DNA of 64,000 nt from an uncultured Eubacteriales bacterium. Lineage in GTDB: Bacteria > Bacillota > Clostridia > Oscillospirales > Acutalibacteraceae. Made by a program: the position numbers and the translations under genes. Below the pieces are notes generated by a model that searched no databases, was not told where the DNA came from, and worked only from the letters and a program-made list of their open reading frames with translations. The stretch lies in the NCBI GenBank assembly GCA_964540535.1, contig CAZIMO010000002.1, positions 216,705 to 280,704 of the forward strand, in the 5' to 3' direction. This document shows, in pieces, positions 4,150 through 45,335 of this stretch. How positions within the stretch are numbered: position 1 is the stretch's first letter; every line of letters starts with the position of its first letter.

Positions 4150-5085
4150 TCAGCCCTCTTCACCATCATCGGTAATTTCGTATATGACAGGCGGAATATC
4201 CTCGTCAGACTCGCCTAAAATCTCAAAAGAGTCGTTACTCTTCGCCGCTTTCATTGAGTTAACAATGTAACAAACTGCGAAAAATGCAAATCCAAAATCG
4301 CAGAGCGCAAAAGGAAATTCCTCGGGTAAAACACCGCCGTTTCCTGTGATAATAACAACAAGTCTGGGCAAATTAGCCGCCGCACATAAAAACGCCGACG
4401 CAAAGCCTGCCGCCCAAAGCGAACGCATAGACTTTTTGTTTGAAAGTCCTGATGAAATTCTTGCGAAGCTTAATAAAAACAGCATCATAAATGCAATGGC
4501 GAAAAGCTCAAGCATAAGGTCAGAAACATTTACATAAGAAATCTTCTTGACAAAACGCATAACAAGTCTTACCGCCGCCCATACAAGAGGACAAAGCGCC
4601 AACAGCTTGTATTTTGAATATGTTGTTCTGCCGTCGATATAAGAAATACCGAAAACGATAATATAAATTGCCGCTAAAATTCCGAAAATTCCTTGAAACA
4701 AAGTAGGAACTATGCTGATTTCATGTGTTAAATAGCCCTGTTTTACAAGAATAAGCGTTGAAAATGCAGTAACTGCATCTGCTACAATGCCTACTCCGAA
4801 AACAAACGAAGCCGTAGCCAAAAGCTTATTTTTTCTGTAAACCGCACGGGATTCGGGTACACTTTTTGCAAGCAATGTGAGTACATAAGGCGCAAGCACT
4901 GCAAGAATGCAAACAGCATACATAAGATAAACCGACCAATTGATTTCTTTATAAAAGCCTGTATCGCTTTCAATCAATGACAAAAGCTGATAAACTCTGA
5001 AAGGAATTGCAACGCACAGAAGTCCTGCGGTTATATAAAGAGAATACAAAGGATTTATTTTTTCTGAACTTCCTATTACTTTCAT
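4150..5085 (-). CDS. Polytopic membrane protein with acidic C-terminal tail, function unknown
   Basis: Eight or more hydrophobic segments. Tightly packed between the AEC permease and citrate synthase genes. Confidence 0.5.
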   Translation of the reverse strand: MKVIGSSEKINPLYSLYITAGLLCVAIPFRVYQLLSLIESDTGFYKEINWSVYLMYAVCILAVLAPYVLTLLAKSVPESRAVYRKNKLLATASFVFGVGIVADAVTAFSTLILVKQGYLTHEISIVPTLFQGIFGILAAIYIIVFGISYIDGRTTYSKYKLLALCPLVWAAVRLVMRFVKKISYVNVSDLMLELFAIAFMMLFLLSFARISSGLSNKKSMRSLWAAGFASAFLCAAANLPRLVVIITGNGGVLPEEFPFALCDFGFAFFAVCYIVNSMKAAKSNDSFEILGESDEDIPPVIYEITDDGEEG

Positions 5086-6509: not shown

Positions 6510-6618
6510 ATTTTACCTCCTTGCAGAAAAATTACGATTATCAAAAATCAATATAAATATACATTATATATTTTAATACATTCAAGGACTAAAGTCAACA
6601 AAAAGGGAGCGATAAAAA

Positions 6619-7587
6619 ATGAAAAGTTACAGTATGATTTGTTTTTTCTTGAGCCTTGCCATGATACTTTGCCCGCTTTGCTCGGTAGAGAAAGCGACAG
6701 ATGTTATCTCGCAGGAGCTTTTAGGCGATGAAATAACTCTGCCGACAGAAGAAACAGCAGTGGCGACTGTAAAGGTTATGAACGCAAGCAGCAAAAATAT
6801 TACAGAAATGTCATTGCGAGATTATCTTATCGGCGTGGTGGCGTCTGAAATCAATGCGGCTTATCACGAAGAAGCCATAAAAGCGCAGATAATAGCGGCG
6901 CACACAATGCTTTTATATTCAAAGGAACACAAGAATGACGGACTTAACGGCGCGGACATCAGCGACAGCAGTGCTACGCATCAAGGATTTTTGACAAAAG
7001 ACGCTCAAGCTGAAAAATGGGGCAATAATTATGAAGCAAACCGTGAGAAAATTGAAAAATGCGTTGACGAAGTAATTGATTTGACGGTTCAGTATAACGG
7101 CGAACCGATAAACGCAGTTTTTCATTCAATCAGCAACGGGCAAACCGAGAACGCAACAGATGTTTGGGGCGGTGAATACCCATATTTGATTTCAGTGAAC
7201 AGTGTGGGCGACAAGCTGTCCCCTGCTTACAGCTCCGAAACAAAGATAACGGCTGAAAAATTCAAGGAAACCGTTACAAAAGAGGGCGCTGAATTAAAAG
7301 AAAAGCCCGATGACTATATCGGTAAAATTACCAATACAGACACGGGAATGGTGAAAACAATTGTTATAGGCGATAAAACCTTTAAGGGTACTGAAATCCG
7401 CGCGCTTTTCGGACTGAAAAGCAGTACATTCACGGTGAAATATAATGACGGAAATTTTATTTTCACCGTCAGCGGATACGGACACGGCGTGGGTATGAGC
7501 CAATACGGCGCAGACTATATGGCGCGGCAGGGCTTCACCTATACCGAAATTTTAAAGCATTATTATACGGGAACGGAAATAAAATAA
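6619..7587 (+). CDS. spoIID: Stage II sporulation protein D (SpoIID/LytB domain)
   Basis: Signal/TM N-terminus. SpoIID motifs EAIKAQIIAAHT and GYGHGVGMSQYGA. RBS AAAGGGAG. Confidence 0.9.
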   Translation: MKSYSMICFFLSLAMILCPLCSVEKATDVISQELLGDEITLPTEETAVATVKVMNASSKNITEMSLRDYLIGVVASEINAAYHEEAIKAQIIAAHTMLLYSKEHKNDGLNGADISDSSATHQGFLTKDAQAEKWGNNYEANREKIEKCVDEVIDLTVQYNGEPINAVFHSISNGQTENATDVWGGEYPYLISVNSVGDKLSPAYSSETKITAEKFKETVTKEGAELKEKPDDYIGKITNTDTGMVKTIVIGDKTFKGTEIRALFGLKSSTFTVKYNDGNFIFTVSGYGHGVGMSQYGADYMARQGFTYTEILKHYYTGTEIK

Positions 7588-7637: not shown

Positions 7638-8816
7638 TTAATTTGATTTTTTCTTTAATCCCAGCAATACTGCACCGCTGAATATCATTGCAACAAATGC
7701 CGCACTGACTGATGTATTGTAATCTGTATTTGGGATTTCAACATCTGTTACAAGGTTATCAGAGCCTGTGTTATTGCCTGTGTTGCTTGTATCAGCATTT
7801 TTAATTTCAAAGTCAGTGACCGCCTCGCCGTCAGTGAATACAATTGAAACAGTATGCTTGCCCGCATCAAGAGTTTTAAGATAATCTGCCTTAAATTCAA
7901 TTATCGTACTGCCCTCGGTTGCGGTATAATTACTGCTGTCAACAGGCTTGCCGTCAACCTTAACACCTGTGAACTTGCTGAACTCGCCGTCAGCTCTGAC
8001 TGTAAGAGAATTTGAAGTTACAACAGAATTTGCACCATCGATTATGTTATAATTTATCGGTGCCTTATAATTTATATCTAATAACGAAATATCAATTTTT
8101 TCAATGTCAGCAGGGACATTATCATTACAATAACATTCCTTAATAGTATCCCAATAACTTCCGTATTTAAACGAAATCAAATCGTATGGGGATTCAAAAC
8201 CGTTAGCACATTTTCTACCATAGCCAAAATAGAATTCCACTTTTGCAAGACAAATATCATCTTCATCATAATGGTACTTGCAAGAACCGTCATCAAAAAT
8301 ATATGTTGTACATACCTTTATACTATCTTTAGGATTAGATACGCCTACAGCATCTCTTGTTTGGCGAACTATACTTCTATTTTGAGGGTAAGAAAATGAA
8401 TATGTAAATACTTCATTTGCTTTGTACTCATCAGAACCTGCCTCACCGCCTGCACCGCCAAAATCTCCGTGTGCAATTTTTCCTGTCAGATACTCCCCAA
8501 CTTGTTTTATTTTTACTTCTCCGCCATTTTCAAGAAAAGCAAAACGGTAAACGGGAAACTCAGTTTCAGTTCCTATATCTCCTAATATAGTGCAATCTTG
8601 ATATACCACACCGACTTTTTCGTAAACTCCTGTCAATTCGTATGTCACATCTGTACCGGGGATTTTAACCGTTACATTCTCAACATAGTTATAATCTATG
8701 TCTGTGCCGGGTATTTTTGACGCTACTCTTTTGAGGGGTTCTGACGCTGTTGCGGAAGTTATAACGGATAAACACATTACAACTGCCAATGCTAATGTTA
8801 TAGTTTTCTTCTTCAT
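7638..8816 (-). CDS. Secreted protein with C-terminal membrane anchor, function unknown
   Basis: The likely start is MKKKTITLALAV (signal peptide). The track's longer start at 8981 reads antisense through repeat copy D. C-terminal hydrophobic helix followed by KKKSN. Confidence 0.55.
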   Translation of the reverse strand: MKKKTITLALAVVMCLSVITSATASEPLKRVASKIPGTDIDYNYVENVTVKIPGTDVTYELTGVYEKVGVVYQDCTILGDIGTETEFPVYRFAFLENGGEVKIKQVGEYLTGKIAHGDFGGAGGEAGSDEYKANEVFTYSFSYPQNRSIVRQTRDAVGVSNPKDSIKVCTTYIFDDGSCKYHYDEDDICLAKVEFYFGYGRKCANGFESPYDLISFKYGSYWDTIKECYCNDNVPADIEKIDISLLDINYKAPINYNIIDGANSVVTSNSLTVRADGEFSKFTGVKVDGKPVDSSNYTATEGSTIIEFKADYLKTLDAGKHTVSIVFTDGEAVTDFEIKNADTSNTGNNTGSDNLVTDVEIPNTDYNTSVSAAFVAMIFSGAVLLGLKKKSN

Positions 8817-8933
8817 TTTAATTGTCCTTTCAAACTTTTTTCTAATTCTATCACATAATTTTTGAAATTGCAATACATTTGCATTACATTTGTTATGCAA
8901 ATAATAAATATATTCATATATATAATAACATTG

Positions 8934-9032
8934 CAGAGATGATAACATAAAAAATACAACGAAAGGAACGATACCGTGCATAAAATGCTGTTTTTAACGG
9001 CTCTTTGTGCCAATTCTGTATTGCATGGCGAT
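8934..9032 (+). repeat. Copy D of the dispersed ~88-nt leader element (most diverged copy)
   Basis: AAAAATACAACGAAAGGAACGATACCGTGCATAAAATGCTGTTTTTAACGGCTCTTTGTGCCAATTCTGTATTGCATGGCGAT, then tttt-ATG of the next gene. Confidence 0.85.
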
Positions 9033-9036
9033 TTTT

Positions 9037-9219
9037 ATGAAAAAGTTTAAAATACCTTCTATTCCCCCCACAACAAGCAAGTGCATTCGTTTTCCCAACG
9101 ATTTAATTGAAGAGGTTGAAACGGCAATTGTGGGTAAAAACTGCACATTCACTGCATTTGTAATTGAGGCGGTAAGAGTTGCCTTGGAAAATTTAAAAGA
9201 AGAAGACGAAAACGAATAA
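9037..9219 (+). CDS. Small ribbon-helix-helix-like DNA-binding protein (60 aa)
   Basis: IRFPNDLIEEVETAI...AFVIEAVRVALE resembles a CopG/Arc-type RHH. Start taken at MKKFK, immediately after the element. Confidence 0.5.
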   Translation: MKKFKIPSIPPTTSKCIRFPNDLIEEVETAIVGKNCTFTAFVIEAVRVALENLKEEDENE

Positions 9220-13818: not shown

Positions 13819-13846
13819 TAAATTACCTTTTCTCGGTGCCATTTTA

Positions 13847-13935
13847 ATCGCCATGCGATACAGTATTCGCACAAAGCACCGTTAAAAAACGGCTTTTTAT
13901 GCGCGGTATCGCTCCTTTCATTGTATTTTTCACAC
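13847..13935 (-). repeat. Copy A of the dispersed ~88-nt leader element
   Basis: Sense strand: GTGTGAAAAATACAATGAAAGGAGCGATACCGCGCATAAAAAGCCGTTTTTTAACGGTGCTTTGTGCGAATACTGTATCGCATGGCGAT, then taaa-ATG. Confidence 0.9.
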
Positions 13936-13991
13936 TATATCTTCTCTTATATTCGCTTTAACGCTTAAAAGCTTGAAAGCAATTTTGATGT

Positions 13992-14087: not shown

Positions 14088-14188
14088 GTGAAATAAAATA
14101 AATCCCACACGCCGCAGGCGTATTTCACAGCGTCAGCTATTTCACACACGAAGTGTATTTCACAAATCCCGTAAGGGATTTATTTCAT
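14088..14188. repeat. Array of four short variable hairpins, each followed by TATTTCA(C/T), bounded by an inverted GTGAAATA
   Basis: TATTTCAC at 14121, 14138 and 14156; TATTTCAT at 14181; GTGAAATA at 14088. The intervening palindromes are CGCCGCAGGCG, AGCGTCAGCT, ACACGAAGTGT and AAATCCCGTAAGGGATTT. Confidence 0.8.
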
Positions 14189-14194
14189 TGAAAA

Positions 14195-14220: not shown

Positions 14221-14297
14221 TGGCGTGCCTGACGGGATTCGAACCTGCGACCTTCAGAGTCGGAGTCTGACGCTCTATCCAGCTGAGCTACAAGCAC
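14221..14297 (-). tRNA. tRNA-Arg (anticodon CCG), CCA encoded
   Basis: Cloverleaf read by hand: acceptor GTGCTTG/CAGGCAC, D-arm GCTC..GAGC, anticodon stem TCAGA/TCTGA with loop CTCCGAC, T-loop TTCGAAT, 3' GCCA. Confidence 0.9.
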
Positions 14298-31700: not shown

Positions 31701-32135
31701 TTAATCTGCTATATTTATTACTATTCTATTTTTCCTTTCTGAAAGTTTCTTAAATTTAAAAGCACCGCCAACTGTATGCTTTACATAAGTTATGACATAA
31801 TCATATTGTTCAATCATCCATTTATTACGATAGTTAATAGCATATCGTAACGGAACACATTCAATACCATCCGGAAAAACCGTGTTGACAAAACTTTCTT
31901 CCTTATATTTATCTCTATCACTTGGAAGATAAGCCAAAACAACTGCATAGTTTATGTGATAAACCTAATTTAACTCAATTATAATCCGTTTTACCATTTG
32001 GTCAAAATTTCCGTGGTTACCTACATAGAAATTATAAACCTTTTTATTCTCAATTAAATCAATAAGAGTCGACCGCAGTGTCGGCTCTATTTCTTTTGGT
32101 GCATCTTTATGCCCGAAGAATGTACAAGTTAACAT
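31701..32135 (-). pseudogene. SLOG/DUF1273-like protein interrupted by a single in-frame TAG
   Basis: MLTCTFFGHKDAP...RIIIELN*VYHINYAVVLAYLPSDRDK... The two track ORFs (31965-32267 and 31701-31937) are in the same frame. Confidence 0.7.
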
Positions 32136-32257
32136 TAAATCACCGTCTTTCTTATACACAAGTATACTATATATGGTCCAAAAAGTCCATATATAGTCGT
32201 TTTCTTCCCTTGCAAACGGATAAACTATTCGTATAGAATTGTTTTGGAGGGTGGAAT

Positions 32258-32500
32258 ATGAATACAAGAAAGGCGGTTGCCAACCGATTGATTGAACTGT
32301 GTGAGCAGAAGAATTTATCTCTTAATGCTCTTGCAAGAACATCCGCTGTTCCGCCTTCAACTCTTAAAAACATTATAAACGGCGGCAGTCAAAACGCAGG
32401 TGTAGTAACTATCAAAAAGCTGTGTGACGGTTTAGAAATTTCGCTTTATGATTTTTTTGATACTGAAACATTTAAAACTTTAGAACAAGAAATAAAGTAA
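32258..32500 (+). CDS. XRE-family HTH transcriptional regulator
   Basis: 80 aa with HTH LSLNALARTSAVPPSTLKNI. Divergent from the SLOG pseudogene. Confidence 0.8.
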   Translation: MNTRKAVANRLIELCEQKNLSLNALARTSAVPPSTLKNIINGGSQNAGVVTIKKLCDGLEISLYDFFDTETFKTLEQEIK

Positions 32501-37595: not shown

Positions 37596-37600
37596 TACCA

Positions 37601-37688
37601 ATCGCCATGCGATACATAATTCGCACAAAGAGCTATATAAAAACAGCCTTTTATGCGCGGTATCGTTCCTTTCATTGTGTTTTCGCGC
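37601..37688 (-). repeat. Copy B of the dispersed ~88-nt leader element
   Basis: Sense strand: GCGCGAAAACACAATGAAAGGAACGATACCGCGCATAAAAGGCTGTTTTTATATAGCTCTTTGTGCGAATTATGTATCGCATGGCGAT, then tggta-ATG. Confidence 0.9.
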
Positions 37689-37718
37689 CGAATACTTTTT
37701 TGAAATAATTATTATAAT

Positions 37719-41476: not shown

Positions 41477-43966
41477 TTACTCAACAACCTTGTAGCCCTG
41501 ATCTTCAACTGCTTTTTTTAGAACAGCAGGCGCTAAATCAGCATCAAGAGTAACAAATGCGGTGCCGTCTTTGTGATTTACAACAGCTTCGCGTACCTCT
41601 GCAAATCCTTCAAGAGTTTTCTTAACTGTTGCTTCGCAGTGAGGACACATCATACCTTCAATTTTCATTGTGATTTCCATAGTTTTTTTCTCCTTTGTTT
41701 TATTTTTTATCTTTTTATCTTTTTTCGCATTACGGATATTTACAAAATTAAGCCGTAAAGCGTTTGATACCACACAGAATGACGAAAGGCTCATTGCCGC
41801 CGCACCGAACATCGGGTTAAGCTCCCAACCGAAAAGGTTTATAAATACACCTGCAGCAAGAGGAATACCGATTGCATTGTAGAAAAATGCCCAGAAAAGA
41901 TTTTCGTGAATATTGCGAAGTGTTGCACGGCTTAATCTGATTGCGGCAGGCACATCTGAAAGACGGCTTTTCATAAGTACAATATCAGCCGCATCAATTG
42001 CAATGTCAGTGCCTGCGCCGATTGCAATACCTATATCAGCACGGGTAAGCGCAGGGGCGTCGTTAATACCGTCGCCTACCATTGCAACCTTACCGCTGTC
42101 TTTAAGCCTGCGTATTACAGCCTCTTTGCCGTCGGGCATAACACCTGCAATAACCTCGTCAACACCTGCAATTTTACCGATTGCATTAGCGGTTTTTTCA
42201 TTATCGCCTGTAAGCATTACCACACGAATACCCATATTCTGCAGTTCTTTAATTGCCTGCGGACTGTCCTCTTTAATAACATCAGCCACTGCAATTATTC
42301 CCAAAAGACGGTTTTCTATACTGAAAAGCAATGGAGTTTTGCCCTCATCAGCAAGACTTTCGGCAATTTTTATTGTATTTTCATCAACAGAAACCTTTTC
42401 ATTTATGAATTTAAGGCTTCCGCCGTAAATCGTCTTATCGCCTATTTCGGCTGTTACTCCGTTTCCCGACAGAGCTTTAAAATTCTGCACCTCTGCCGCA
42501 GTAATTCCTGTTTCTTCACCTTTAGCTATAATCGCCTTTGCCAACGGATGCTCGCTTTTGACCTCAAGAGAATACGCCATATTCAAAAGCTGTTCTTCTG
42601 TAATATTTTCAGCAGGAATTATATCTGTAACCTTAGGACTGCCGAGAGTTATTGTTCCTGTTTTATCAAGTACAACTGTATTCACTCTGCCTGTTTCTTC
42701 AAGAGATACGGCAGTTTTAAATAAAATTCCTTTTTTTGCGCCTACGCCGTTGCCGACCATAATGGCAACAGGAGTTGCAAGTCCTAAAGCGCAGGGACAG
42801 CTTATTACAAGCACTGAAATTGCCCTTGCCAACGCATAGCCTGCGCTTTGACCTACTATAAGCCACACAATAAGCGTTACTATCGCAATGGTGATTACCG
42901 CAGGAACGAAAATGCCCGAAACCTTATCGGCGATTTTGGCTATAGGCGCTTTTGTTGCGGCGGCGTCGCTTACCATTTTAATAATTTGTGAAAGAGTTGT
43001 GTCCTCGCCCACACGCAAGGCTCTGCATTTTATATATCCCGACTGATTAAGTGTTGCAGCTGAAACTCGGTCACCCACAGCTTTATCAACAGGAATGCTT
43101 TCTCCTGTGAGCGCCGACTCGTCAACAGCTGTTTCGCCCTCAAGAATTTCGCCGTCAACTGAAATCTGCTCGCCGGGGCGAACCACGAAAATATCGCCGG
43201 TTTGCACCTGTTCAATCGGTAATTCGGTTTCAACACCGTCTTTAATTATAACAGCAGTTTTCGGCGCTAATTTCATAAGGGATTTTAATGCGTTTGTAGT
43301 TTTTCCCTTTGAACGGGCTTCAAGCATTTTTCCCACGGTAATAAGGGTTAAAATTGTAGCCGCTGACTCAAAATAGAACTCGTGAAGCCAATGATGAGCC
43401 ATTTCTCCGCCTACGGCAGTCATTTTGAAAAGTGCGTATACGCTGTATAGAAATGAAGCGCCCGAACCGAGAGCCACAAGCGTATCCATATTCGGCGATC
43501 GGTGCAAAAGTCCTTTAAATCCGCTGATAAAGAATTTTTGATTTATGACCATTATAATCGCGGTCAAAAGCAACTGTAAAATTCCGATTGCCATAGGATT
43601 TGACGCTAAAGCTTCGGGCAGCCACCAGCCCCACATAACATGCCCCATTGAGATATACATTAAAATTATTAAAAATCCCAATGACGCAATAAGCCGTTTT
43701 TTAAGCTTGGGAGTTTCAGTGTCTTTCAGCGTATCTTCATCGCTGTTTTGTAATGTAAACTTTTTACTGTCTTTTAAAGACGCGCCGTATCCTGCATCGG
43801 TTACGGCAGATATAACTTTTTGAGGATCTGCCGAGCCTTCAACGCCCATTGAGTTAGTGAGCAGACTCACTGAACAGGAATTTACACCTTCCACCGCATT
43901 AACTGCCTTTTCAACGCGGGCAACACAGGCGGCGCAGCTCATTCCGGTAACAATATATTGTGTCAT
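41477..43966 (-). CDS. copA: Copper-translocating P1B-type ATPase with N-terminal and C-terminal HMA domains
   Basis: [23 protein letters not shown], plus a C-terminal GMMCPHC domain. Start at MTQYIV; the track start at 43978 lies inside repeat copy C. Confidence 0.9.
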
Positions 43967-43970
43967 AATA

Positions 43971-44057
43971 ATCGCCATATGATACAGAATTCGCGCAAAG
44001 AGCCGTTAAAACAGTTTTTTATGCGCGGTATCGTTCCTTTCATTGTATTTTTCACAC
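43971..44057 (-). repeat. Copy C of the dispersed ~88-nt leader element, filling the csoR-copA spacer
   Basis: Sense strand: GTGTGAAAAATACAATGAAAGGAACGATACCGCGCATAAAAAACTGTTTTAACGGCTCTTTGCGCGAATTCTGTATCATATGGCGAT, then tatt-ATG. Confidence 0.9.
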
Positions 44058-44064
44058 AATCACC

Positions 44065-44364
44065 TTATTTCATAAGTTTTTGCAGTGTTGACAGCAAATC
44101 GTCAACAGTTTCGGTTTTACCTGCCTTAATATCATCGGCAACGCAGGTTTTTATATGATTTGCAAGAAGCTCTTTATTAAAAGCATTCAGCGCCGCATTA
44201 ACAGCCGATACCTGTATTATTATATCCGTGCAATAGGCATTTTTTTCAACCATTCCGCGAATACCGCGAATTTGTCCCTCAATTCTGTTAAGACGGTTGA
44301 TAAGAGCCTTGTACTCTTGCTCACTGCGGAGCTTTGTCTTGCATTTTTCACAAGTATTACCCAT
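44065..44364 (-). CDS. csoR: CsoR-family copper-sensing repressor
   Basis: 99 aa. RLNRIEGQIRGI motif and the C..H..C ligand pattern (AYCTD...HIKTC). Confidence 0.9.
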   Translation of the reverse strand: MGNTCEKCKTKLRSEQEYKALINRLNRIEGQIRGIRGMVEKNAYCTDIIIQVSAVNAALNAFNKELLANHIKTCVADDIKAGKTETVDDLLSTLQKLMK

Positions 44365-44387
44365 AATCCCACTCCTTTTACAGTTTT

Positions 44388-44416
44388 ATTATATACCCCC
44401 TGTGGGTATGTGTCAA
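44388..44416 (-). promoter_or_regulatory. Consensus promoter with a CsoR operator in the spacer
   Basis: Minus strand reads TTGACA-CATACCCACAGGGGGTA-TATAAT. The spacer carries the palindrome ATACCC..GGGTAT typical of CsoR operators. Confidence 0.75.
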
Positions 44417-44486
44417 GATAAAAAATAAGGCGGAGATTATAATTTTCTCCACCGTTATTTTAGTTAAGGCGAAGGGAGTCGAAGCC

Positions 44487-45335
44487 TTAATTCATATGTT
44501 CCTTTGATGCGGTTAGAGTGTTTTTCAAAAGCATCGTGATTGTCATAGGTCCTACACCGCCGGGAACGGGAGTGATATATGAGCATTTATCTTTTACCGC
44601 TTCAAAATCCACATCTCCGCAAAGCTTGCCTTCAGTATTTCGGTTCATACCTACATCAATAACAACTGCACCGTCTTTCACCATATCGGGTGTCACAAAA
44701 TACGCTTTACCCACTGCGGCAACAAGAATATCGGCGCGCTTTGTTACCTCTGATAAATTCTTTGTGCGTGAATGGCAGATTGTAACCGTTCCGTTCTGAC
44801 CGAGCAAAAGCATGGCCATAGGCTTGCCTACAATATTGCTTCTGCCGATTACAACGCATTCTTTGCCCTCAACCGAAATACCGTAATATTTGAGCATTTC
44901 CATAATTCCTGCCGGTGTACAGGGAAGAAAAGAATGGTCGCCAATCATAATATGACCTGTATTCACAGGGTGAAATGCGTCAACATCCTTATGGGGAACA
45001 ATCGCATTGAGAACTCTTTTTTCGTCAATCTGTTTTGGCAACGGCAACTGACACAGAATTCCGTCAACCGCTGCGTCATTATTAAGTTTTTCAACCAGTT
45101 CAAGTAATTCTTCGGTTGTGGTCTCTTCGGGCAGCGCATATTCAAAAGACTCCATACCTACCTCGGAGCAGCCTTTTTTCTTATTGTTTACATACACCCT
45201 TGAAGCAGGGTTATTACCGACAATTACAACTGCAAGCCCTGTTTTTTTGCCCTGTGAGCTAAGAGACTCAACCTCTGTCTTGATTTCTTCACGGACAGAC
45301 GCCGAAACCTCTTTACCGTCAATAATTTTATACAT
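44487..45335 (-). CDS. folD: Bifunctional methylenetetrahydrofolate dehydrogenase/cyclohydrolase
   Basis: 282 aa. GILCQLPLP and GRSNIVGKP motifs. Confidence 0.95.
   Translation of the reverse strand: MYKIIDGKEVSASVREEIKTEVESLSSQGKKTGLAVVIVGNNPASRVYVNNKKKGCSEVGMESFEYALPEETTTEELLELVEKLNNDAAVDGILCQLPLPKQIDEKRVLNAIVPHKDVDAFHPVNTGHIMIGDHSFLPCTPAGIMEMLKYYGISVEGKECVVIGRSNIVGKPMAMLLLGQNGTVTICHSRTKNLSEVTKRADILVAAVGKAYFVTPDMVKDGAVVIDVGMNRNTEGKLCGDVDFEAVKDKCSYITPVPGGVGPMTITMLLKNTLTASKEHMN

Follow-up and report, generated by a model that had tools for sequence, protein, structure and literature searches.

The window analysed here is a 64,000-nucleotide (nt) stretch of DNA from an uncultured Eubacteriales bacterium, and its minus strand carries csoR, a gene of the copper-sensing repressor family, followed by copA. 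The csoR stop codon (44065-44067) and the copA ATG (43964-43966) are separated by a 98-nt spacer, exactly where an earlier sequence-only reading of the window had placed it, and 89 of these nt belong to a hairpin-bearing element called copy C. That reading was right that an element fills the spacer but gave its length as 87 nt, whereas empty sites in relatives set the boundaries at 44058-43970. The best explanation, and in our judgement a probable one, is that copy C is a dispersed element that resides at ribosome-binding sites (RBSs) and brings with it a built-in Shine-Dalgarno (SD) sequence, split around its hairpin. The features of the locus are as follows.

44388-44416, minus strand: csoR-copA promoter, sigma-70-type, TTGACA-17-TATAAT, 12/12 consensus, with a CsoR-operator-type GC-rich inverted repeat in its spacer.
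44065-44364, minus strand: csoR open reading frame (ORF), copper-sensing repressor family; stop at 44065-44067.
44059-44066, minus strand: native copA SD AAGGTGAT, now stranded, overlapping the csoR stop codon; the same sequence lies 3 nt from the copA ATG in relatives with an empty site.
43970-44058, minus strand: copy C, the element between csoR and copA, very probably inserted; 89 nt, 99 bits with the covariance model (CM), missing in L051, L053 and L052.
44035-44041, minus strand: 5' arm GAAAGGA, proposed first half of the split SD; complement of 16S ...CUUUCCU, invariant in almost every copy, pairs with the anti-SD tail in cofolds.
43980-44033, minus strand: hairpin of P1 (CGATAC/GTATCG), P1b, P2 (GCATAAA/TTTGTGC) and a variable P3, from folds and covariation.
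43976-43978, minus strand: internal ATG of the element, in frame with copA; opens ORF 41477-43978 and gives the MAIIM annotation.
43970-43976, minus strand: 3' arm GGCGATT, proposed second half of the split SD (compare GGUGAUC); conserved in the family though outside the search pattern.
43964-43966, minus strand: ancestral copA start codon; the equivalent Met opens 119 homologues.

The setting is one of syntenic core genes, folD-csoR-copA, and the csoR orthologue at locus L051 of a close relative carries the PF02583 Trns_repr_metal domain. The csoR promoter is the sole promoter-like site predicted in 43850-44500, and neither a promoter nor a sense-strand terminator is predicted within the csoR-copA spacer; an internal promoter or terminator inside the element was rejected on these predictions for the sense strand. 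The element sits within a CsoR-controlled operon, and the consensus promoter on which the sequence-only reading had based the same view is present at 44416-44388.

Copy C is one of four copies in the window, with no more found. All four match a CM built from 20 copies (E-values of 1e-18 to 1e-21; matches accepted at E < 1e-5), and sub-motifs of 14-17 nt occur four times in the window against 0.2-0.3 expected. Each copy is in the sense orientation to its downstream gene and ends 3-4 nt before its ATG. The other three are listed here.

13846-13936, minus strand: copy A, before an HMGL-like aldolase gene (ATG 13842-13840); CM 113 bits; site empty in L054 (92%), L055 and L057.
37600-37691, minus strand: copy B, before a DtxR/MntR-family regulator gene (ATG 37595-37593); site empty in L058 (95%) and L063 (91%), filled in L060-L062 (97%).
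About 8944-9033, plus strand: copy D, before a 60-aa ORF (ATG 9037-9039); CM 107 bits.

The consensus reads (T)AGTGTGAAAAATACAAnGAAAGGAR-CGATACCGnGCATAAAA-(variable stem-loop)-CTTTGTGCGAAtnCTGTATCG-CATGGCGATT-nnn-ATG. The motif GAAAGGA(A/G) stands 5' of the hairpin in all four window copies, as had been reported from the sequence alone, about 75 nt upstream of the gene's ATG. Altogether, the CM found 49 copies that reduce to 37 non-redundant loci, drawn from several metagenome-assembled genomes (MAGs) of Oscillospiraceae, one isolate assembly and metagenomes.

The history of the element can be read at orthologous loci of close relatives, which were reached through protein homologues and include empty sites for three of the four window loci: copA, aldolase and mntR. 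At copA, L051 (96% identical in CopA) reads ...ATGAAATAAGGTGAT CTA ATGACACAA and L053 (88%) reads ...AATAGGTGAC ATT ATGACACAA; these two alleles have a copA SD that overlaps the csoR stop, with 8-9 nt between the genes (9 nt in L051, AAGGTGAT-CTA-ATG). The window allele, in contrast, reads ...ATGAAATAAGGTGAT, then the element (TGTGTGAAAAATACAATGAAAGGAACGATACC...CATATGGCGATT), then ATT ATGACACAA. At the aldolase locus, L054 (92%) joins GAGGAGATAT directly to AAAATG, while the window has GAGAAGATAT, the element (AGTGTG...GGCGATT) and AAAATG. At mntR, L058 (95%) and L063 (91%) are empty, with GAAAAGAGTAT CAAAT ATG, and L060-L062 (97%) carry the element as the window does. The CM detects it in filled alleles only, and the filled and empty alleles that form pairs come from relatives 91-97% identical. 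At all three loci the additional unit is 89-92 nt in length, whole, with the AAAAATACAATGAAAGGA arm included, and lies between the native SD and the start codon. The element was thus very probably gained as an insertion, in sense orientation, between a native SD and its start codon, to judge from these alignments.

These sites also decide an older proposal, that a core of about 62 nt bounded by CGAT had entered a pre-existing RBS of the form GAAAGGAG...CGATTAAAATG (...CGATT). The spoIID RBS AAAGGGAGCGATAAAAAATG to which it had been likened is present at 6602-6621 as quoted, but the empty sites at three loci show that the whole 89-92-nt unit was gained, and insertion of a CGAT-bounded core is rejected. 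The more general idea behind it, that a hairpin element sits in RBSs and rebuilds them, gains support, since the empty sites show RBSs to be the place of insertion. For copy D there is no empty site, and a look-up of its 60-aa product gave no match; among metagenome contigs only filled alleles were seen for copies B, C and D.

Insertion leaves the old SD stranded about 90 nt upstream. The pre-existing SDs upstream of the unit are AAGGTGAT at copA, GAGGAG at the aldolase gene and AAGAG at mntR; the copA SD lies 92 nt from the ATG in the window. It occupies 44066-44059 and was overlooked when GAAAGGA, itself a good SD-like site, was taken to be the only one. Stranding of the old SD is the rule, because anti-SD complementarity peaks directly 5' of the element (mean -3.1 against a background of about -0.7 kcal/mol across the 37 loci). 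The stranded SD has lost a G in two filled alleles: GAGGAG has become GAGAAG at the aldolase gene (window 13937-13948 against L054), and AAGAG has become AAAAG or AATAG at mntR (window 37692-37700 against L058). These two cases, and there are only two, are consistent with relaxed selection after insertion. The same contrast is seen for the PSP1/YaaT gene, whose orthologue in L012 carries two tandem copies, while the window gene (start 1949) has no element and a canonical AGGAG-N8-ATG. At copA, as the compared alleles read, the insertion turns a coupling-type csoR-copA junction into a 98-nt structured spacer within the same operon. A search for RNA sequencing runs that contain this locus found none.

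Copy B at 37600-37691 and the copy at L060:1167-1272 stem from the same insertion event, having a unique P3 in common. They differ at six positions, all transitions and all in the 5' 45 nt, with none in the 3' 60 nt, and the flanking promoter region is nearly identical.

The wider family shows the same placement. At the 37 loci, single copies are all in sense orientation and all directly before a start codon, and the flank from GGCGATT to the start is exactly 3 nt in about 26 of 37 copies. The downstream genes are functionally unrelated and include those for CopA, another P-type ATPase, MntR, aldolase, iPGM, MnmA, YceG and a metallophosphoesterase, along with a YfbR-type HD nucleotidase, an esterase, DUF255, a HAD hydrolase, an amidohydrolase, GNAT and an ABC ATPase. 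Orthologues only 81% identical in protein (L018 against L037 and L040) still share the element. In a search of one genome per species, the exact 5'-motif pattern matched 15 contigs (Oscillospiraceae and Ruminococcaceae MAGs and Neglectibacter sp. X58), and a looser pattern matched 35 metagenome contigs. No matches were found in viral contigs, a phage collection or a plasmid collection, and a phage or plasmid origin was rejected on these zero counts. In gut-metagenome contigs that contain a relative about 97% identical to the window, the element has an assembler depth 13-23 times as high as its flanks, and contigs of the same depth enter the element from many contexts and often break inside it. 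This excess indicates roughly twenty or more similar copies in that relative. Copy C belongs to a family of dispersed repeats, non-autonomous and about 90 nt long, in gut Oscillospiraceae.

Several copies depart from the standard form. Tandem pairs with a 90-nt period occur at L012:2352-2547 (minus strand), L013:2908-3103 (plus strand) and L017:7987-8180 (minus strand), and the sequence at the junction of the pairs, GCATGGCAGGCATCAT, stands before the first copy too. The two copies of the L017 pair are nearly identical to each other, while those of the L013 pair differ in P3. A mini-variant at L038:2159-2228 (minus strand) keeps the same arms around a different, 20-nt GC hairpin (AAAAACAAAGAAAGGAG, CGGCGCGGAATGCCGCGCCG and CTTGGTGGTTCCC, followed by ATG), which suggests that the arm-hairpin-arm design is modular. 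A truncated copy at L009:4499-4582 (minus strand) retains only the 5' arm and the 5' strands of P1 and P2, and an ATG that opens an ORF follows about 20 nt on.

Single-sequence folds, RNAalifold and pair counts agree on a three-part hairpin. P1b is a two-pair extension in which the variable N of CCGNGCA covaries with the 3' internal-loop base (GC 12, GU 13, UG 5, AU 1, CG 1), and P3 is apical and variable with several compensatory changes; covariation is seen in these two parts. Across 44 distinct copies, 90.6% of cells hold standard pairs, compared with 28-55% once the 3' partners have been shifted by 1-3 columns, in an alignment that was fitted to the model and so favours structure somewhat. 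In 500 shuffles, the paired fraction, the count of double changes and the covariation score all stayed below the values observed. The sense strand is predicted to be more stable than the antisense strand (mean -19.2 against -14.0 kcal/mol; 35 of 41 copies), which would fit a constraint at the level of RNA or of the top strand.

The element must permit initiation, because it is retained before important genes (iPGM, MnmA, YceG, CopA) and across orthologues to 81% identity. In the proposed mechanism, the P1-P2-P3 hairpin would fold in the mRNA and bring the 5' arm GAAAGGA beside the 3' arm GGCGAU. Both arms together would complement the 16S 3' tail (AGAAAGGA followed by GGUGAUC) with one mismatch, so that a 30S subunit could pair across the hairpin base with the gene's own ATG at the normal 8-nt distance. 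The element would then restore translation through an RBS of its own, split around a stable hairpin. The sequences of the arms suit this role. The 5' arm, GAAAGGA(G), is a perfect complement of the assumed 16S tail over 7-8 nt, and the 3' arm, GGCGAU(U), matches the next segment apart from a single C/A mismatch, the break in the extended SD falling exactly between positions 8 and 9; the perfect form GGTGAT occurs in a few copies. The sequence-only reading had found nothing SD-like between hairpin and ATG, which is not quite so, since GGCGAU at 43976-43971 matches GGUGAU, the 3' half of the extended SD. An element-free relative (88%) has at L055:~985-1003 a native aldolase RBS, AAGAGGCGATTAAAATG, that is identical to the 3' arm of copy A plus its flank, and this comparison of letters shows how closely the 3' arm resembles the 3' half of an ordinary SD with its spacer.

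Spacing provides an independent argument and distinguishes two geometries of a split SD. Among element-free window genes, the SD lies 6-9 nt from the start codon in 32 of 39. With the 5' arm alone, and the hairpin treated as a bridge of zero length, the aligned spacing is at least 12 nt, beyond that range, while addition of the 3' arm brings it to 8 nt in the model, since a flank of 3 nt leaves 8 nt between the ATG and the GG with which the GGAGG core is completed. Cofolds of all four window copies with GAUCACCUCCUUUCU keep the hairpin in the minimum-free-energy structure and pair the tail with both arms (ddG -9.4 to -12.4 kcal/mol); among the non-redundant copies both arms pair in 25 of 37, against 20% with a shuffled 3' arm. 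The comparison with phage T4 gene 38 made in the sequence-only reading still yields the best functional model, but it needs refinement: simple bridging as proposed there leaves at least 12 nt, and both arms would be required. In T4, a hairpin shortens the effective spacing from 22 to 5 nt in gene 38 and from 27 to 11 nt in gene 25, and mutations in the stem lower initiation (PMC3014915). That the SD is functionally split, in either geometry, appears from the modelling to be reasonably likely. The bipartite geometry in particular, a three-way junction with the 16S tail, is a tentative proposal that we do not hold with even confidence, and the predicted pairing of both arms with the tail is suggestive.

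A number of observations weigh against this explanation or parts of it. The conserved C of the 3' arm does not match the anti-SD, and in the cofolds this arm adds only about 1.1 kcal/mol, a pairing that 20% of shuffled arms also achieve. The 16S tail was presumed from general knowledge of Firmicutes rather than read from the host, the 16S 3' end being absent from the window and from all loci examined. From genus to genus P1 and P2 hardly change in sequence, in contrast to the loops and P3; this suggests that the stems are constrained by more than folding, for example by a protein or mobilisation machinery that recognises them. The split SD also leaves the conservation of the element's internal AUG without an explanation. 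On the side of insertion, the 3' junction of copy B at mntR is not clean (GGTA against CAAAT); this spacer also differs between the two empty alleles. The comparison that the sequence-only reading had suggested, for empty sites and target-site duplications (TSDs), gave empty sites at csoR-copA, mntR and aldolase, and no TSD longer than 1 nt fits the three filled/empty pairs. Terminal inverted repeats (TIRs) are absent, as the termini AGTGTG... and ...GGCGATT are not inverted copies and P1 and P2 are internal. No transposase domain was found in a Pfam scan of 30 of the 58 window ORFs (27-34341), and no IS200-like TnpA by tblastn with an IS200 TnpA query in 486 kb of related sequence. The window ORFs scanned with Pfam are core genes, for example spoIID, spoIIAA-AB-sigF, rplU-rpmA and feoB.

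The internal AUG raises the possibility of a different start. The conserved GCATGGCG holds an ATG 12 nt upstream of the gene's ATG, and gene callers adopt it: CopA of the window is called as MAIIM... (P0001), and the MntR of a relative (P0241) is called as a protein of 149 aa that starts inside the hairpin and reads through MHKRLFLYSSLCELCIAWRLVMKK.... In an arrangement of the T4 gene 38 type, the hairpin would set GAAAGGA beside the internal AUG (GCAUGGCG) and translation would begin there, adding MAIx to the protein or, when out of frame, creating a short coupling upstream ORF. Among the 37 non-redundant copies, 32 have ATG or GTG as the internal codon, and in 26 it is in frame and open; it lies 1-2 nt after P1, with GGA 1-2 nt before P1, giving a short effective spacing like the 5 nt of gene 38. 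The in-frame status, however, is automatic, because the flank is fixed at 3 nt, and the codon is out of frame in copy B, the L001 group, L005 and L017 (by a 1-nt indel relative to its orthologue L013). It is not a start codon in L014 (GTA, where the orthologue L003 has GTG), in L048 (GAG) or in one L020 copy (AGG); in L048 the change to GAG produces a canonical GGGAGG that lies 8 nt before the ATG. The other CopA homologues all start MTQ..., and homologue lengths (CopA 826-829 aa, aldolase 325 aa, MntR 128 aa) fit the downstream ATG and mark it as the conserved start. These variants and lengths led us to judge the internal ATG unlikely as a real start, and initiation there in the manner of gene 38 is improbable.

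The split-SD explanation must also be compared with one in which the hairpin does more than bridge a gap and serves as a binding site. Here the element would be a cis-regulatory leader that spread for its regulation, a translational operator bound by a protein or ligand and possibly related to metals; such a function is compatible with a split SD. P1, P2 and both arms are conserved in sequence across genera, the element occurs only in sense and in the 5' untranslated region (UTR), and a small alternative hairpin, AUCGC-AUG-GCGAU, seen in the centroid fold of copy B, could sequester the 3' arm. Metal-homeostasis genes make up 3 of 37 targets (copA, the DtxR/MntR regulator gene and a second heavy-metal P-type ATPase gene), and several others encode metal-dependent enzymes (iPGM, metallophosphoesterase, HD nucleotidase, amidohydrolase). 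The occurrence of metal genes among the targets (copies B and C; L001/L021/L029/L046) may be due to chance, and the other targets are unrelated housekeeping genes. Presence and absence differ between strains 95-97% identical, and stems are conserved while loops and junctions vary, the opposite of riboswitches. Rfam 15 gave no match at the element, across the whole window at gathering thresholds or at the locus even at E <= 10. A riboswitch or regulon as the principal explanation was rejected from the unrelated downstream genes and the strain differences, and spread for the sake of regulation is unlikely.

A third alternative dispenses with any role in translation. The element could be a neutral selfish repeat whose GAAAGGA arm and hairpin serve DNA mobilisation only, the weak 3' arm alone, leaderless or SD-independent initiation, or coupling being sufficient for the downstream gene. 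Invariant stems are what a transposase or recombinase substrate would show, folding with DNA parameters is likewise better on the sense strand, and the 3' arm of L048 has itself become the canonical GGGAGG. GGCGAU alone, on the other hand, is a very weak SD in a host whose genes mostly have SD runs of at least 5 nt (39 of 52). In every copy, moreover, the 5' arm directly adjoins the base of the hairpin and is a perfect match to the anti-SD for 7-8 nt, and the flank is held at 3 nt. A repeat that does nothing for translation is thus very unlikely.

The split-SD element also has to reach its sites. Restriction to the SD-start interval and the sharp peak of the flank at 3 nt mean either real targeting or very strong selection on spacing. 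The 5' flanks (...GGTGAT, ...GAGATAT, ...GAGTAT) resemble the element's own 3' end, ...GGCGATT, and on its bottom strand the 5' arm has the very sequence of the anti-SD, TCCTTTC. Together with the missing TSD and the conserved stems, the likeness of flank and 3' end recalls HUH or site-specific systems, in which target and element terminus are alike, by analogy and as a lead only. A bolder form of the explanation would make this a new class of selfish element that homes to RBSs and neutralises itself by splitting the SD around a hairpin. Such an element would recognise the SD/start region, perhaps through SD-like or anti-SD-like complementarity in its arms, and would always enter 3 nt before the start codon. 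Its mRNA would form a three-way junction with the 16S tail, and it would amount to an RBS 'intron' removed by folding instead of splicing. We regard this form as speculative and rather unlikely.

A comparison with known systems places the element between several of them. The split RBSs of T4 genes 38 and 25 (Nivinskas, Malys et al.; PMC3014915) share with it an SD too far from the start for functional spacing and a hairpin in the interval, here stable and conserved; in T4 the hairpin restores the distance, so that function depends on the fold, and here it would do the same. They are, however, single, vertically inherited sites with 22-27-nt spacers and a whole SD, while here an element of about 90 nt precedes many genes in tens of copies and the hairpin appears to split the SD into halves. 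Miniature inverted-repeat transposable elements (MITEs) and the small repeats REP/BIME-RAYT, BOX, RUP, SPRITE, Correia and ERIC (PMC3184786, PMC2817692, PMC3733652, PMC3049150) are likewise short, non-coding, multicopy, intergenic and hairpin-forming, polymorphic between strains, sometimes tandem, co-transcribed with their neighbours and able to affect expression. Those repeats are scattered between genes in both orientations, typically at gene 3' ends or between the genes of operons. The multicopy, non-coding insertion polymorphism of a MITE is found here, but its TIRs and TSDs are not. To our knowledge, no family of the MITE, REP or BOX type sits specifically between SD and start codon. REP/REPIN-RAYT and IS200/IS605-derived PATE elements are imperfect palindromes with a conserved tag, in genomes that have a Y1 HUH transposase. 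They too have a conserved stem and no TSD, but the present element has no GTAG/CGTC tag and a single 54-nt three-part hairpin, and its target tetranucleotide is not conserved (flanks GAT, TAT, ATC...). With no Rfam 15 match, variable loops and unrelated genes, it does not resemble a riboswitch or a curated cis-regulatory RNA, and with no R''/R' cores (RYYYAAC/GTTRRRY) in its consensus and syntenic core genes as targets it does not resemble an integron attC site.

Two further groups share its logic. Mycobacterial interspersed repetitive units (MIRUs) are reportedly repeats of 40-100 bp inside operons that lie in one orientation to transcription and preserve the translation of their neighbours. 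They resemble the present element in being intra-operon, singly oriented and built to keep the flanking genes translated, but they keep up expression by coupling, through small ORFs whose ends overlap the stop and start codons next to them, with no structured split SD, and are tandem in the manner of variable-number tandem repeats. The T4 gene 60 bypass element (bioRxiv 10.1101/2022.08.31.505936), self-splicing introns and Rickettsia palindromic elements are selfish insertions at places where expression should be destroyed, and they carry their own device for neutralising the damage; they act within coding sequence, by bypass, splicing or in-frame tolerance, in contrast to the translation initiation region used here. 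In function the closest kin are the split RBSs of T4, in genomic behaviour the small dispersed repeats and in concept the self-neutralising insertions. The literature search, incomplete in coverage, found no repeat family described in the SD-start interval that supplies a structured RBS, and there is a substantial chance that targeting makes this element something more distinct than the known kinds.

If the split SD works, hairpin-bridged initiation is no phage curiosity: in each genome, tens of cellular genes would use it, and a discontinuous SD could be read by the anti-SD from one side of a helix junction to the other. A repeat found only in the SD-start interval implies a targeting principle or a very strong selective filter, either of them undescribed for MITEs and REPs. 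The element would in effect be a natural, portable RBS cassette that tolerates a structured insert of about 55 nt. Since divergence from relatives 92-96% identical in the compared proteins, three gains have altered the 5' UTRs of copA, mntR and the aldolase gene; copA is uncoupled from csoR, and expression of metal homeostasis may differ between strains. In practice, the element displaces the starts that gene callers predict, interrupts metagenome assemblies where genes begin and could pass for a riboswitch.

The promoter from which copy A and the aldolase gene are transcribed is closely preceded by a tRNA gene with a Gut-1 RNA directly downstream of it (RF01706, 60.7 bits against a gathering threshold of 50; window 14117-14190 and 14224-14297, both minus strand). 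Three ORFs have no Pfam family at E <= 1e-5: 4150-5085 (minus strand, 311 aa), 7638-8981 (minus strand, 447 aa) and 31965-32267 (minus strand, 100 aa). The predicted start of the 447-aa ORF overlaps copy D on the opposite strand, and its true start is probably further in.

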